Source of the DNA: a virus
Taxonomy: Duplodnaviria > Heunggongvirae > Uroviricota > Caudoviricetes
Direction: 5' to 3' (one strand)
IMG/VR virus record: IMGVR_UViG_3300031867_000014
Span: 1-64,000 of that record
Length of the DNA stretch: 64,000 nucleotides
The notes under the pieces are model-generated. The model saw only the letters and a list, made by a program, of their open reading frames with translations, was not told where the DNA came from and did no database searches. Numbering within the stretch: the first letter of the stretch is position 1; every line of letters starts with the position of its first letter. The position numbers and the translations under genes are program-made. Below are positions 1 to 64,000 of this stretch, piece by piece.

Positions 1-497
1 CAGGCGATGGCACATATAAAAGCGGTGGTTTGCCAATGGTAATTCTATCATATGGTCACTCCACTTGGCAAGATTTTATAAACGCATATCATAATAATGT
101 TATTGTTTATTGTCGTGCTTCTTCTAACACCAATCCTGGAACAGGTAGTTTGACTCGTATGGCTTTTATGGCTTATGTTAACAATGCTGAAAATCCAACA
201 GAAGTTGAATTTCAATATTATCGTTCTACAAATCCTACTGCACGAACCATAAATGCTATAAATGACCAAGTATATGTTTATAAATTAGAATCTAAAAATG
301 GCGGTACTTGGACAGTTACTGCTCGTGAAGCCGGAATGAAATCTCTTGCATTGGCTGCGGGCAATGCAGGTTCTGTTACATATGATAAAAACACTGCAAT
401 TGTAACACTTGATACTAATTTACCAGCCGTAACCGCAGCAGATGATGGTAAGGTATTAAAAGTAGTTAATGGCATATGGACTGCGGTGGCAGAATAA
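1..497 (+). CDS. 3' portion of a structural (tail fiber-like) protein; the gene starts upstream of the window
   Basis: Reading frame is open from the window edge (same frame as ORF 30..497) and ends with TAA at 495-497. Gly/Thr/Asn-rich composition is typical of fiber proteins, and the gene sits in a + strand late module. Confidence 0.5.
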   Translation, partial: GDGTYKSGGLPMVILSYGHSTWQDFINAYHNNVIVYCRASSNTNPGTGSLTRMAFMAYVNNAENPTEVEFQYYRSTNPTARTINAINDQVYVYKLESKNGGTWTVTAREAGMKSLALAAGNAGSVTYDKNTAIVTLDTNLPAVTAADDGKVLKVVNGIWTAVAE

Positions 498-511
498 GGA
501 GGAAAATAAAA

Positions 512-790
512 ATGGCTTTTGCTAATGTATATACCGTAAATGCTTGGATTGTAGATACCAATGGTACTTTTAATTATTTATCTGGTTATCCAAAAGCATT
601 TCAAAGTAAAAATTATGGTAATGATGTAAATAAGGCACTTCAACGTGCAAGAGGAGAATTCCATACGACAATTGGAACATTGTGCTCAAGAGATGATAGA
701 AAAGTTCAAACAGTAACAATTCATGATATGTATGGTAATGAAATAGAACCACCATTTTCTATGGGTGAATTTGAGGTTGAACCAGAATAA
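512..790 (+). CDS. hypothetical protein
   Basis: ATG at 512 lies 8 nt downstream of an AGGAGG RBS, in the frame of ORF 476..790. Ends with TAA. Confidence 0.5.
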   Translation: MAFANVYTVNAWIVDTNGTFNYLSGYPKAFQSKNYGNDVNKALQRARGEFHTTIGTLCSRDDRKVQTVTIHDMYGNEIEPPFSMGEFEVEPE

Positions 791-59400: not shown

Positions 59401-62400
59401 CCAAATAACCCAAATTACCTAAATGAGTAATATTTTGTACGAATAGCATTATAGCTTCTTGTTCATCAGTTGGCATATTATCAAAGCGTACAGCATTTGT
59501 CTCGCCTTCTGGAATATAAATTGGACCACGTGGGCTGCCTTGCGTTAAAGAGTTAGCACTAAAGTTGATCCAAACATAACTTGAGTCATCAGCAGTTAAA
59601 TTCAAAGTATACTATTTACGTTCAGTCTCAGTATAGTCTGAACTAGCTGGTAATGGATTTACACGGAAGCTATATTTAAATGCGGAACCATCTGCAGCAT
59701 ATTTACCATCCAAAAGCAACAAGCGACGTTTAAGCCATTGTTTACGATGCTCAGAACGAGTACCTTGTGCCGCATATAACAAATCAGAATAGTTAGTGTC
59801 ACGCACTTGCCAATACTGAGAATGATCGGGTTGTTGATACTCAGAATTATCCTGCTCATTTGCGACACTATCAATTAAGACGTGTTGACCACTTGAATTG
59901 TATAACCAGTTAGGTTCATCTTTCGGACGAATATACTTATACCATTCATCTTGGTTAATTAATGTTTCTACCCAAGCATTAGCTAATTTATTATTATAAG
60001 TATTAAGTAAGAAATTCAAATTCAAATTACCTTTACGCATCTGACGATACATAACAGCAACAGGACTTGAATAACCATTTGCAAAACACAATCTAAAGTT
60101 AGCCCATAAAACGCTATATTCACCAGAACCGTTAGGATCAATATTACCCTATGCATCACGTGGATAATCTGCAGTTGTATTATAAATACCGAAATTAGTA
60201 TCACGTACATCATAACGATATACTAATTTACCAGTATTATTAACACCCATTGCCGTGTCCATATCGTAGAAAATAGGATACCAAATACCAGTACCAGTTT
60301 CATTATCAGCATCATATGAGACCATCATCATATTTTTCGCACGACTGTCCATTAATACTTCTAATTCTGTCATAATATAATAGAAAGTAACAAAATCACG
60401 ATCCATATGTCTATCAAATTCATTTTTAAATTTTGCTAAACGATATTCGGCAGAATCGGTCGTATAAGTTACACCATCTAAAGTAACTTCTGGAATTGGA
60501 TTATTGGTCGCTGTTTTCATATTGGTAGACGCTAACCAATTTAAAAATGCACTAAATGCACGTTTATCTGTCATCTACTGATTATCATAATCAGGATAAC
60601 GTGATTCATAACCCGCGATCCAAATTGGGTATGGATCTGTCATGCCAATCTATTGATTATTTTCATCATAAGTTGGTTTTGGATCTTTATCAGCATTATC
60701 ATCCCATGGAGTTCTAAATGATGTCAAATCATTATTATTGTTTTTCATTTCCCAGCATTGAATGGAATTACGCTTTTCTTTATAAAGATATAATGGAGCA
60801 GTCTTTAAATAATTTGCATAATTCTTTGCAGCAGTTTCTTCACTATTCGGTGTCCATGGCACCATTTGATAAATACCATCTTGTAATACATACTTATAGT
60901 AAGTTTGTTCAGGATCATAAGGTAAATCTTTAGGCGAATCAACAATCGCTTCATACCCTGGTACAAAATCATTACCGTTCTTTACAAAACCAAAACCAGT
61001 AGCTTCATCAGAGAAGAAACCGAATAAATCAGCTTGGCTCTTATCTAAGTTAAAATTATAACGACCAATATATTCATATTTATCAAATGAATCTTCGCCA
61101 GTAAAACCGTTTGCATCTGTAGGATCAATACCAACCGGATAATAAAAGATAACACATGGACGACCTTTAATGGCAGTCAATAATGTTGTATTAGCATATT
61201 GATGACTAGTATTTTTTAAAGCTGCTTTTGGAGTTAATTCAATATTAGCAGAAGCATATAAATCATTGAGCTAATTAGCAGTACCAGTATTATGTGACAT
61301 AGAGCTATCCATATAATCAGCTTTCAATGTAAATATTTTACAAGCCGGAATATCAGAAAATAATTTATATTTCTTTTTTACAGTATTAAGACGTAAGTTT
61401 TTAACCGGATATTCTAATGAAGATGTGCCCTGTGGATAAATTGTACAATGCCATCTATCAGCAGATGTAGCTGTAAAACCAATAATTTTACCTTGAGAAT
61501 TTTTCTAAATAGACTCCATATTAATACCAAAGCAACGATCTTCATCATTAGGATCAACGAAATATGCTTCTACATAACGGTAGTCTTTTTTATCAAAATA
61601 TGGTAAACTAACTTCTGCATTATCGGCACTTTGTGTCATCTTAGTACCTTTTTTATCAGTACGATAACCACCACGTAATACCAAATAAGGAATTGATGCA
61701 CTTTCAATAACTTTTTGTAAAGATACATAAGAATATTTACCTGCGGCATTATATTCAGTAACGTTATTTGCTGCTTTACGAGCCATGGCAGCGTCTGCAT
61801 CGCCCAAACCAGCTAAATAGTTATCTAATACGGCTTCTGCACTTAAAGCTTTACCATAGAAACGGAAATTATATAATTCAATATCTGCATATGTAGAATC
61901 GAAAATAGTAGCAGTTAAAATACCTTCACCAGAGTCTTGACGCAAACGCATATTAGAATCACGCGCAACAATGCCTGAAAGTACACCATTAACATATACA
62001 TAAATATAATTGCGTGGTGTACGTGTATCAATATCAGCATCATTACGAGCGATAACATAACAAATATGTACGCGTTCATCTGCACTATAATAAGCCACTA
62101 AACCATTAACATTATCACCAACTACGCCTTTAGTCTGCATATCAGTTAATACTTTAGTGCTAGTATCAGTTAATGCAAAATAGTCACCAGTAGCAATAAT
62201 ACCTACAACAGGTTCATCTGATTCCCAGTTTTCACGTTGTGTATTATAACTGGCACAATTAATAATACGCTGTTTACGATCACGAATATTAGAAATTTTT
62301 ACATCAAATTCAATAGTCTTACCAGTCGTAATAGCGCCTGTATAAGATGCAGTGTTACTATTAAAAGCGCCATAGAAAGGTGCGACAGGGAAGGTCAATT

Positions 62401-64000
62401 TTGCACCATTGTTCAATACTAATTTATTTTTATTAGCATTAACCGCAAACCAACCATTAGTAGTCCAGTTAAAATTCTTAAATTGAGCTTCCACAATAGT
62501 ATTACCAATAGCTTGCGCGCCACCCGCCGCAGTTTCTTGCCCATCTGGATTAAACCAAGTTGTAGACCAATTCTCCTTATTAGGAGAAGTTTCATTCTTA
62601 TCTGGTGTAAAATCGAATTGAGCATCAGCAGTAACAATAGGCATAACACCAGAACTACCTGAAATTGTATATTCTTGTGGACTAGTAACTGTTTGTTTGT
62701 TAGCACCACTACCAACTGTTAAGACTAATTGGTATACACCTTCATTTTCAAATGCTACATCCCACGTTAAATTCTAACCAATAGTAAAATTCTGTAAGAT
62801 ATCACGATCAATCACAAAAATACCATTATCATTTTTCTTGTACATCAAAAGATGTCCTTCTAATGAAGTCACTTGCGCAGAAGGATAAGAAACACGATAA
62901 ACAACTTTTACATTGGACGCATAGGCGGCATATGATGATTCAGAAGGCCAAGATAATACATTAATACGAGGCACTGGATTCGATGGATCAACGAACATAA
63001 CACTTTGTGATAATGTAGCGCTTGTAATAGTTGTATTACCGATAGTGCCGCTTACTTGAGTAATTACTGTAACAGGACGACCTGCCTGATATGTTAAAGT
63101 AATATGTGAAGCAGTACCATTAGTGATATTTAAAATTTCACCAGTCTGATAAGAAGTACCATACTGTTGGTCAATTACTGAATAAATAATTTTTGGATTA
63201 CGAATTAATGCAGAGTCATAACGAGGTACAACACCATATGATGCATCACCATCAAAGTCTTGAAGTGACTCGGTTTCTGGAGTTACATACAAAGATGCTA
63301 AAGCTAAAGATAAAGTTTGTGATGCACTTCTATTATTACCATCAGTAAAGATTACTGCTAAACTATATTGATGGTTTTCAGAAAAGGTATGTCTATCTAA
63401 CTGTTCATGAATATAATTTTTAATATCGTAATCAACAATGGTATTTCTAGTTGCACTTGGTTGAATATTTTCCATTGTAAATAATTTTGTATTACTGCTG
63501 CGATCATAAACCTCAATATCAATTTGATTGGTTAAACCTTCAATTTCAGATTCTGAATAAGCAACATAACGCAAAATCATTGAATCAGCGGTAGTAGAAT
63601 ATGCAACAGAACGACTAACAAGAGTCGCTGCAAATGTACTGGCTACACCACCACCACCAGTACCGCCACCACCAGAGCCATTACCCGCAACGGTCATGCG
63701 GCGAGTTGTCACTAATTGTAATGTTTCATCTACGCGGTCTACACGGAAAAATGAACCATTAGTTTCATCAAAAATGACATCATCGGTTTTTGGTAAATTA
63801 ATAACAACGGGTTCATCTGGATCGGTTAAATCTAATACGCCTTCGATTTCGTTAAAGTAGAAATTAAAATCAGTTTCAACTTCAGCGAATTCTTTTGAGC
63901 TGTAAAAGAATCCACTAGATCCACCAAATGCTAAACGATCATGTAAGGTATGTGATTCAGAATCAGTAAAATCACAATCTAAATAAATCTTTTTAGTATC
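56480..64000 (-). CDS. giant (>2500 aa) virion adhesin/tail protein with C-terminal BspA-type leucine-rich repeats; at least 12 in-frame TAG codons; the 5' end lies beyond the window
   Basis: Eleven consecutive ORF-track pieces (62774..63712 down to 56660..57535) are all in one frame across TAGs, with open gaps (extra TAGs at 57581, 60575 and ~61270). The frame is still open beyond 63712 to the window edge. It ends with TAA at 56480. LRR_5-like repeats 'AFxxCxxLxxI' and a Gly-rich 'GNGSGGGGTGGGG' segment are present. Confidence 0.7.

Follow-up and report, generated by a model that had tools for sequence, protein, structure and literature searches.

In-frame TAG codons, predicted to encode glutamine and concentrated in late genes, in a member of a family of large tailed phages

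The DNA considered here (the window) is the 64,000-nt stretch from position 1 to 64,000 of IMG/VR record IMGVR_UViG_3300031867_000014, which derives from a virus of the class Caudoviricetes. Its genes terminate at TAA or TGA and never at TAG, and the TAG triplet is found in frame at 37 positions within 12 genes, where, as judged from sequence, it is a glutamine (Gln) sense codon. An earlier note on this DNA had proposed true reassignment of TAG over a few programmed read-throughs or pseudogenes. That proposal stands, with 37 sites that are followed by in-frame coding sequence throughout, that are spanned by domains and homologues, and that recur in independent, identical assemblies.

Results

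Layout of the window and choice of gene model

Plus-strand genes occupy positions 1-46617, as a short late-like block (1-3326) and then a replication and nucleotide-metabolism block with genes for topoisomerase II, DNA ligase, DnaB, RecJ, a Dda-like helicase, a PolIII-alpha/YorL-type polymerase, NrdDG, dUTPase and RuvC. Minus-strand late genes occupy 46660-64000 and encode a membrane protein, an endolysin, fibre-like proteins and a giant LRR_5 protein.

The sequence is not an assembly artefact, because it recurs independently. The ENA metagenome contig ERZ27256863:k141_1511219 (73,465 bp) carries the window in reverse, with a 100% match over 46480-64000 and exact window proteins at the expected places elsewhere; contigs of a second assembly, Logan SRR9036512, are also 100% identical to the window. 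The contig was reached through exact matches of window proteins; 40-mers of the window gave no exact match in IMG/VR or in JGI metagenomes. Further samples contain sister strains that are ~98.7% identical and retain the TAGs. Relatives were collected through the DUF2828 protein encoded from position 3731, which matched 171 loci in IMG/VR and 539 in metagenomes; the set used here consists of the 80 best from either source, and individual loci are cited by number (L002 and so on).

Genes were called with a 3-periodic Markov model derived from the long TAG-free open reading frames (ORFs) of the window, together with ribosome binding site and start scoring and dynamic programming. The caller was run with four sets of stop codons, and its genes were compared with those that the database gives for the identical ENA contig.

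Code 11 (standard): 86 genes, coding density 0.893, total score 4063
TAG as sense: 65 genes, coding density 0.940, total score 4186
TGA as sense: 77 genes, coding density 0.853, lower score
TAA as sense: 67 genes, coding density 0.798, lower score

The best gene model is the one with TAG as sense, because it has the highest density and score and fewer, longer genes, and because reading TGA or TAA as sense gives a worse result. Four genes missed by our caller were added from the database calls (45713-46198, RuvC-like; 11744-11878; 13071-13337; 14609-14905). The final set has 69 genes in the window, two of them truncated by its ends, and their terminators are 47 TAA, 22 TGA and 0 TAG. The earlier note had counted no TAG terminator in about 90 genes; the absence of TAG is borne out, and the number of genes is 69. 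Its lower bound of 37 internal TAGs in 12 genes turns out to be the exact count. The next 9 kb of the same contig, with further late genes, hold 16 more in-frame TAGs, for a total of 53 in 73 kb.

Genes that contain in-frame TAG codons

The 12 genes are as follows, with lengths in amino acids (aa).

810-2138, plus strand: 442-aa Ser/Thr-rich protein, probably of the virion; TAGs at 1299, 1431, 1680 and 1911; ends with TAA
2613-3326, plus strand: cell-wall hydrolase-like protein of 237 aa with a C-terminal SH3 domain; TAGs at 2871, 3135 and 3246; ends with TAA
16958-17587, plus strand: ClpP-family protease; TAG at 17015; ends with TAA
17559-18860, plus strand: PIN-PhoH protein; TAGs at 17694, 18084, 18219 and 18264; ends with TAA
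26533-27528, plus strand: membrane/coiled-coil protein with a GIY-YIG nuclease domain; TAG at 26656; ends with TGA
45713-46198, plus strand: RuvC-like Holliday-junction resolvase; TAGs at 45734, 45743, 45848, 45872 and 45935; ends with TGA
46660-47232, minus strand: 190-aa protein with an N-terminal membrane helix; TAG at 46927; ends with TAA
47533-49221, minus strand: endolysin of 562 aa with SpoIID, NlpC/P60, PG_binding_1 and SH3 domains; TAGs at 48757 and 48418; ends with TGA
49867-51804, minus strand: tail-fibre-like protein of 645 aa; TAG at 50482; ends with TAA
51831-53702, minus strand: virion or fibre-like protein of 623 aa; TAGs at 53457 and 52764; ends with TAA
53723-54316, minus strand: late protein of 197 aa; TAG at 54074; ends with TGA
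56480-64000, minus strand: giant late protein with a BspA-type LRR_5 C-terminal region; 12 TAGs; ends with TAA

The giant gene consists of thirteen successive segments in one frame, divided by TAGs at 62774, 61505, 61271, 60650, 60575, 60149, 59612, 59042, 58535, 57740, 57581 and 56660. Its product has 2553 aa in full (to 64141 on the contig, the first 47 codons lying outside the window) and more than 1000 homologues; most of the 120 listed are 2000-2600 aa long, and many are encoded on phage contigs of ~110-180 kb. This is presumably a virion or host-recognition protein. Gene 810-2138 is likewise made of five successive same-frame segments, with a positive coding score after each TAG, and is a single 442-aa call on the identical contig.

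Protein domains extend across several of these codons. In the hydrolase-like protein encoded at 2613-3326, the last TAG falls at residue 212, inside the Pfam SH3_3 match (residues 185-234), and the homologue in L017 is also split under the standard code. The Pfam CLP_protease match (residues 18-196) and alignments with ClpP structures in the Protein Data Bank (PDB; residues 7-197) cross the TAG at residue 20 of the ClpP-family protease. No ATG, GTG or TTG is available there between the TAG and position 17105 (residue 49), and a start at 17105 would remove conserved ClpP sequence. PIN-PhoH, for which the database call starts 30 nt upstream (443 aa), has at least 120 full-length homologues among the matches listed. 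The RuvC-like gene is a 161-aa database call with a weak Pfam RuvC match and weak PDB RuvC alignments through three TAGs, and a resolvase is found at the same syntenic position in Enterococcus phage VRE9_1.

Among the late genes, the proteins encoded at 46660-47232 and 53723-54316 align across their TAGs with proteins of the 40-52% identical relative L002, the latter over residues 8-204 at 51% identity. The former, beside the lysin gene, is a candidate holin or spanin. Gene 51831-53702 is a single 623-aa gene on both identical contigs. The 204-codon in-frame extension after the TAG of the tail-fibre-like gene scores +50.5; the start of this gene is ambiguous, with a TTG giving 645 aa and the database call giving 507 aa and leaving 440 nt unassigned. 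We also observed that the tail-fibre gene is a variable spot among near-identical strains, and that the alignment with L009 fragments there. The least certain of the 12 is the GIY-YIG gene at 26533-27528, which is a 331-aa call on near-identical contigs; the stretch from its TAG to the first standard start scores +6.4 in frame, and the other frames of 26533-26724 score about -40.

Frame continuity and the absence of TAG terminators

A count of zero TAG terminators is true by construction once TAG is treated as sense, hence our use of tests that are not circular. Under the standard code, 24 ORFs ending at TAG were called, and in 23 of them the frame stays open for 59 codons or more before a TAA or TGA is reached. 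The median run-on to any next stop is 100 codons after TAG, 7.5 after TAA and 7 after TGA (Mann-Whitney p = 2e-9), and the TAG run-on in a standard-code control, Enterococcus phage VRE9_1, has a median of 6 in the same pipeline. At 37/37 sites, the 30 codons 3´ of TAG have a coding signal in the frame of the gene that is missing from the other two; the score per codon is +0.18 after TAG, +0.20 before TAG and -0.67 in the other frames. The minimum distance from an in-frame TAG to the gene end is 26 codons, and that TAG lies within an SH3 match. Six-frame ORF-length ratios were dropped as a per-locus test of the code, since removal of any stop lengthens spurious ORFs.

The TAG trinucleotide is not rare in the window, with 360 and 272 occurrences in the two off-frames of the genes. 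The probability of 0/69 TAG stops is 5e-7 if 19% of genes ended at TAG, as off-frame stop-triplet frequencies predict, 7e-4 at 10%, and 0.016 at the 6% of the AT-rich control VRE9_1 (3/52). TGA and TAG have the same base composition, and their ratio as terminators is 22:0 (p = 2e-7 for equal use, 9e-4 at the control's 8:3). TAG-stop depletion has also been described in 261 standard-code relatives of recoded phages and is seen as a precursor of recoding (Borges et al., bioRxiv 10.1101/2021.08.26.457843). AT-rich relatives that use the standard code seldom end genes at TAG, so the absence of TAG terminators is by itself modest, supporting evidence; frame continuity and homology decide the case. 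The genome-wide avoidance on which the earlier note had built its argument is real, but it is weak alone, and sense TAGs are not spread uniformly but are concentrated in late genes.

The amino acid encoded by TAG

Two TAGs fall at invariant positions. TAG 18264 of PIN-PhoH is Gln in all 120 homologues listed and in PDB entry 3b85, and TAG 48757 of the endolysin corresponds to the Gln of the SpoIID GHGVGMSQ motif in three crystal structures, with the alignment extending beyond the TAG. In the giant protein, 53 homologues have Gln and 39 have His at the TAG column that is best conserved. When log-odds were summed in the manner of Codetta over 16 TAG columns, with homologues of no more than 60% identity, Gln (+8.7 bits) was the sole residue above zero, the next best being -11.6; some database Gln residues may be TAGs translated with code 15 and inflate this sum, a problem from which the PDB alignments are free. 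In control draws the true residue was recovered in 198-200 of 200, and random non-Gln columns gave Gln in 8/500.

In agreement with this assignment, TAG 46927 is CAG (Gln) in the sister strain L009. A codon comparison with L002 was set aside, as that relative is too diverged (31-60% identical) and antisense matches intrude; CAG and TAG were the commonest partners of TAG in it, with only 3 cases each. A pyrrolysine (Pyl) reading, suggested by the label that ARAGORN gives to relatives' CUA tRNAs, was rejected on the Gln evidence.

Distribution of TAG between late and replication genes

Left late-like block: 4 genes; 7.5 TAG per 1000 codons; CAA/CAG/TAG 16/0/7
Replication block, 3418-46617, plus strand: 54 genes; 0.8 TAG per 1000 codons; CAA/CAG/TAG 273/229/11
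Right late block: 11 genes; 3.4 TAG per 1000 codons; CAA/CAG/TAG 136/30/19

TAG is about five times denser in late genes (26 in 6598 codons) than in replication genes (11 in 13787), and the enrichment holds relative to CAA and CAG (odds ratio 6.5, Fisher p = 1e-7). The replication-block terminators are 34 TAA, 20 TGA and 0 TAG. Neither a sense TAG nor a TAG stop is present in 50 of the 54 replication-block genes, which codes 11 and 15 therefore translate identically. Choice between the other two Gln codons also differs, CAA:CAG being 152:30 in late genes and 273:229 in replication genes; the late genes, in which TAG is frequent, have few CAG codons, as would be the case if TAG had replaced some of them. 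We take the late bias to be the published pattern of a phage that is readable under both codes early in infection.

A family of large phages with the same code

The 73-kb contig is incomplete, being ~40% of the genome of a large tailed phage of about 150-200 kb, since contigs with homologues of PhoH, DUF2828 and the giant protein reach ~200 kb, with many at 140-200 kb (134-194 kb for PhoH and the giant protein). The window phage belongs with a family of phages of ~140-200 kb (for example, IMGVR_UViG_3300028591_000087), with which it has in common DUF2828, PIN-PhoH and an LRR_5 giant protein of 2300-2600 aa, at 45-87% aa identity. TAG run-on is long in 63 relatives, with or without a CUA tRNA in the fetched flank (median 37-71 vs 7-10 codons), which makes recoding a family trait. 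GenBank phages gave zero matches in a megablast search with 20 kb of the window, and the nearest GenBank relatives of the polymerase (phAss-1, SPbeta-like phages and Enterococcus phage VRE9) have only ~38% aa identity. The lysin domains (SpoIID, PG_binding_1, SH3) and a replication module like those of SPbeta and Enterococcus phages suggest that the host is probably a Gram-positive bacterium.

Suppressor tRNAs in the relatives

In the relatives, the DUF2828 gene is immediately preceded by a large tRNA array; a search of the upstream structural region in five of them found no tRNAs. Of 947 tRNAs in 113 related loci, 60 have the anticodon CUA, 1 has UUA and 0 have UCA; ARAGORN undercounts the CUA tRNAs. 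The closest complete relative, L096 (193 kb, 83% aa identity on the DUF2828 protein), has a tRNA(CUA) at L096:3050-3138. Upstream of its DUF2828 gene are Thr and Ser tRNAs at 6.3-6.7 kb, Pro, Asn and Gln tRNAs at ~10 kb and the tRNA(CUA) at ~16.5 kb. The DUF2828 gene of the window begins at 3731, and only 404 nt of contig precede position 1, so an array would be expected off the contig. We infer, and because the local gene content differs from that of L096 can only infer, that the tRNA array of the window phage lies just beyond the left contig end. The Pfam matches of the window include no release-factor (RF2) or aminoacyl-tRNA synthetase gene.

The CUA tRNAs of the relatives are of two kinds, short (71-76 nt) and long (88-99 nt). 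In the long set, 14 of 19 have a non-standard 1:72 pair and the other 5 a weak A-U or U-A, G2:C71 is present in 19/19 and G10:C25 in 17/19, G73 is an invariant column, and the stems covary. The features of classical amber suppressors that insert Gln are U35, a weak or mismatched 1:72 pair, G2:C71, G73 and G10 (review PMC9976931). Of 29 phage tRNA(CUA) studied in E. coli extract, 28 insert Gln (PMC12636597), and a suppressor tRNA(CUA) is found in 35-40% of code-15 phages (Borges et al.).

Two other features of these arrays were seen in passing. L028:1109-1181 is a short-type tRNA with the ochre anticodon UUA (loop CU-UUA-AA), and L060, L061, L065 and L086 have tmRNA genes within the phage tRNA array, within ~1.4 kb of the CUA suppressor in L060 and L061.

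Long suppressors carry an extra arm

All 19 distinct long CUA tRNAs of the protein-anchored, unbiased set have a canonical anticodon arm with loop CU-CUA-AA. They also have a second hairpin with a 7-nt loop, N-U-CUG-A-N in 17 and N-U-UUG-A-N in 2, which is the anticodon loop of tRNA-Gln. This loop is closed by a covarying stem of 3-6 bp, and its spacing to the T-stem is constant. The canonical tRNA-Gln and tRNA-Trp of the same phages are without the arm. The Rfam tRNA model misses L096:3050-3138 at the gathering score, and ARAGORN labels long CUA tRNAs 'Pyl' or assigns them a 4-base anticodon. In phAss-1, a short and a long suppressor stand in tandem, annotated as plain tRNA-Sup-CTA with no remark on the arm. 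At least 51 more long CUA tRNAs turned up in IMG/VR by a pattern scan, the contigs ranging from 4 to 395 kb. A search aimed at opal suppressors with a Trp-like arm, made to see how general the architecture is, gave at least nine, with anticodon loop CU-UCA-AA, arm loop CU-CCA-AA and covarying stems.

Long amber suppressors: L096:3050-3138, L021, L031, L035, L037, L059-L063, L069, L074, L111, L116, L118, L138
Long amber suppressors, continued: L154, L157, L167, L174, L081:6607-6705; in phAss-1, L528:2492-2579
Opal suppressors with a Trp-like arm: L311:5406, L331:1370, L347:1557, L355:13002, L362:12, L368:290, L384:533, L390:12376, L408:737
Opal suppressors with a Trp-like arm, continued: L335, L420, L475, L495 (IMG/VR loci)

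A scan that made no use of the arm, with only the D-arm and anticodon loop fixed, found that 72/72 tRNA-Trp(CCA) were short, that 5/5 long CUA tRNAs carry CUG, and that 6/6 long UCA tRNAs carry U-CCA-A. Together with the family set, the cases that could be inspected follow the same pairing in 24/24 long CUA and 6/6 long UCA tRNAs, with 0 crossed (Fisher p = 1.7e-6). An automatic best-hairpin caller was noisy and often register-shifted, and a motif-anchored table and covariation counts were used instead. The literature searched, the coverage of which was incomplete, held no description of the extra arm, and a prior description is possible.

The arm could be an identity decoy for glutaminyl- or tryptophanyl-tRNA synthetase (GlnRS, TrpRS), an alternative anticodon arm, a relic retained for modification enzymes, or a decoy for anticodon nucleases. 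We raise, as a tentative idea that we would sooner bet against than for, that recoding here and in many recoded phages may rest on a two-headed suppressor tRNA: its anticodon loop proper (CUA or UCA) would read the stop codon, and the arm, with the sense anticodon loop of the residue inserted (Gln at UAG, Trp at UGA), would be a GlnRS/TrpRS identity element or an alternative anticodon arm. An arm that serves the anticodon-dependent GlnRS and TrpRS would explain why phages reassign stop codons only to Gln and Trp. How host synthetases charge phage suppressors is a question raised by Borges et al., for which the extra arm offers a testable handle.

A gene-free stretch with a TAG-ended ORF

A search for a well-supported gene that terminates at TAG found no credible case. 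Between the called genes, one ORF alone reaches 100 aa, ends at TAG and has a short run-on; it is at 2293-2598, with a TGA two codons on. Its coding score is -11.4 and its translation is Cys/Arg-rich. It has no protein homologue among 160 related loci, bar a nucleotide-level match in one (L102), and no database gene call on the identical contig. The negative score alone was not used against it, because the coding-potential model had missed the RuvC-like gene; the ORF was rejected as a protein gene on the score, the lack of a homologue and of a gene call, and its promoter and terminator context. Other ORFs that end at TAG are small (25-52 aa) and either lie out of frame over real genes or score strongly negative.

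2139-2612, plus strand: gene-free stretch of 474 nt with a promoter-like site, GC-rich structured-looking segments and a terminator

An extended -10 promoter-like site lies at 2143-2172, and a hairpin at 2573-2585 is followed by a T-run that contains the TAG of the ORF. This stretch is probably a non-coding RNA of ~400 nt, as its sequence signals suggest. Rfam has no family for 2139-2612, and a search of 2100-2650 at E up to 1 returned a chance-level match only; conservation at the nucleotide level was found in L102 only. The putative RNA lies ~1.1 kb upstream of the DUF2828 gene, for which the PHROGs label is RNA-binding protein, and it is a possibility that the RNA is a partner of the DUF2828 protein.

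Other genes of the window

A nucleoside 2-deoxyribosyltransferase gene (5334-5885, plus strand) is followed by a gene for a 460-aa transporter of the xanthine/uracil permease family (5885-7267, plus strand); a membrane nucleobase transporter is an uncommon type of phage gene. RNA-repair-like genes are found on the plus strand at 3731-5248, 9007-10428, 10509-11006, 13594-14454, 14907-15407 and 15472-15987. This set comprises a DUF2828/DUF7788 'RNA-binding protein', an RNA ligase (phrog_968), NADAR, a Metallophos phosphoesterase, a KTI12/AAA_33-type kinase and Metallophos_2, and by these predicted functions the genes resemble a tRNA repair kit (kinase/phosphatase plus ligase). They occur in a suppressor-dependent phage family with up to 27 tRNAs per fetched flank.

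Discussion

We consider it very probable that the window phage uses code 15, in which UAG is Gln and only UAA and UGA terminate, with a putative phage tRNA(CUA) and a proposed late-gene switch. The decoder would be a phage-encoded amber-suppressor tRNA(CUA) with Gln identity features, encoded beyond the left contig end and charged by the Gln machinery of the host. In a host that uses the standard code, early genes would be translated correctly under either code, and full-length late proteins would be made only once the suppressor had accumulated, as in the late-switch model of Borges et al.

Several observations weigh against parts of this explanation. ARAGORN found no tRNA in the window or in the remaining 9.5 kb of the 73-kb contig, Rfam gave no match at the gathering threshold, and a covariance model of the relatives' suppressors gave nothing at E up to 10. 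The sole TAG of the ClpP gene (17015) stands opposite the conserved Asp of the YDIYSRL motif of cellular ClpP and not opposite a Gln. Most TAG columns of the giant protein are variable and carry little information, and the log-odds sum may be inflated, as said above. The 11 TAGs of the replication block, confined to the ClpP, PhoH, GIY-YIG and RuvC genes, sit poorly with the switch.

TAG might have been reassigned not to Gln but to Trp, to Pyl or, by way of a long-arm tRNA, to Ser, Leu or Tyr. The ClpP position, the 'Pyl' label, the many CUA tRNAs of 89-99 nt with a class II-like extra arm, and published isotype predictions for phage tRNA-Sup that include 19% Trp and 10% Ile (PMC10879173) would fit. 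We give this only a slim chance, since Gln occupies the two invariant columns and is alone in having positive log-odds, strains are polymorphic for TAG and CAG, and phage tRNA(CUA) insert Gln by experiment (28/29). The suppressors themselves point the same way: their acceptor features are of the Gln type, the extra arm is unlike that of Ser, Leu or Tyr tRNAs, and the L037 suppressor is a clear paralogue of its own phage's tRNA-Gln(CUG), with identical D-arms.

About as improbable is that the host's own code reads UAG as Gln, in which case there would be no switch during infection and the late bias would be a difference in codon usage only. TAGs in four replication-block genes and the general difference in Gln codon choice are compatible with this, and code-25 phages that match code-25 hosts have been described (Borges et al.). 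Phages of the same family, however, carry their own tRNA(CUA), and the avoidance of TAG by 50/54 replication genes, expected if these must be read under the standard code, would otherwise be unexplained. We know of no bacterium that reads UAG as Gln, which counts against a host code of this kind. A Codetta screen reportedly covered 250,000 genomes.

Slightly less probable again is programmed, context-dependent read-through of TAG, with neither a dedicated tRNA nor reassignment. The lack of a suppressor tRNA in the available 73 kb would be in its favour; however, at 53 sites in 73 kb, with up to 12 per gene, realistic read-through rates would yield no full-length giant protein, TAG is never a terminator, and relatives carry tRNA(CUA) genes. 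Finally, a standard code, with the segments as separate small genes or same-frame decayed pseudogenes, has next to no chance: an ATG, GTG or TTG does follow within a few codons of the TAG in several segments (for example, lysin 48741 and 48405), and TAG as the first in-frame stop of ~18% of genes is not unusual for a standard-code genome, but neither accounts for thirteen same-frame segments in one gene and five in another, for TAGs that split single domains and motifs (SpoIID GHGVGMS|Q, the PhoH N-terminal motif, SH3, ClpP), for giant-gene homologues that are single proteins of mostly 2000-2600 aa, for the run-on statistics, or for a ClpP N-terminus with no alternative start.

Code 15 has practical consequences for annotation. 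Code 11 gives 86 fragmented ORFs and loses the lysin, the fibres, the resolvase and the 2553-aa protein, and code 15 gives 69 coherent genes; pipelines that meet this widespread family, with hundreds of IMG/VR and metagenome contigs, need table 15. That sense TAG tracks late genes while the replication genes are readable under both codes supports the idea that the code change times late-protein synthesis.

Relation to known recoded phages and suppressors

The code-15 gut phages of Borges et al. (Lak, crAss-like, Jade, Sapphire, Agate and related clades) are alike in having in-frame TAG at Gln positions, recoded codons mainly in structural and lysis genes with replication genes variably or not recoded, late modules at more than one place in a large genome, a suppressor tRNA(CUA) in the family, and TAG as a rare or absent stop. 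They differ in that the decoder gene is missing from the 73-kb contig and no RF2 or synthetase gene is in the window; nor has the window a terminase gene that would place it in their clades.

The top GenBank match to the window DNA polymerase is phAss-1 of the proposed genus Phassvirus (Babkin et al. 2023, PMC10607447; GenBank OQ749652), which is listed in the NCBI taxonomy under 'Caudoviricetes code 15 clade'. In phAss-1, TAG encodes Gln in 41 ORFs, including lysis and structural genes; it has 36 tRNAs, three of them tRNA-Sup-CTA, and is related to Enterococcus phage EF1-type genomes (PMC10607447). Its suppressors include the long kind seen in relatives of the window phage. The polymerases have 38% aa identity, there is no nucleotide match, and the phAss-1 genome is 136 kb as against ~140-200 kb for the family described here. 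Species of Phassvirus are 80-86% identical in nucleotide sequence (PMC10607447), and by these measures the window phage would be outside Phassvirus, in a different genus or family and a distant relative at best.

The crAss-like phages of Peters et al. (2022, PMC9523058) have the same reassignment, shown there by metaproteomic peptides and here from sequence, and are an unrelated lineage (Crassvirales, with Bacteroidota hosts). Enterococcus phages VRE9_1 and EF1 and SPbeta-like Bacillus phages have the replication gene order of the window (resolvase, dUTPase, guanylate kinase, PolIII-alpha/YorL-type polymerase, Dda-like helicase, RecJ, DnaB), at ~37% aa identity; unlike the window phage, they use the standard code, with TAG ending 6% of genes and no TAG run-on. 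The relatives' tRNA(CUA) resemble the classical E. coli amber suppressors that insert Gln (supE tRNA-Gln(CUA), su7 tRNA-Trp(CUA) and tRNA-fMet(CUA)) in the features by which GlnRS accepts such a tRNA: U35, a weak or mismatched 1:72 pair, G2:C71 and G73. Many of the phage tRNAs differ from these classical suppressors in the conserved hairpin, with a loop like the Gln anticodon loop, that separates the anticodon arm from the T-arm. A code change already known in phages thus has a new example here, in a further independent lineage, and the window is not a new kind of system.

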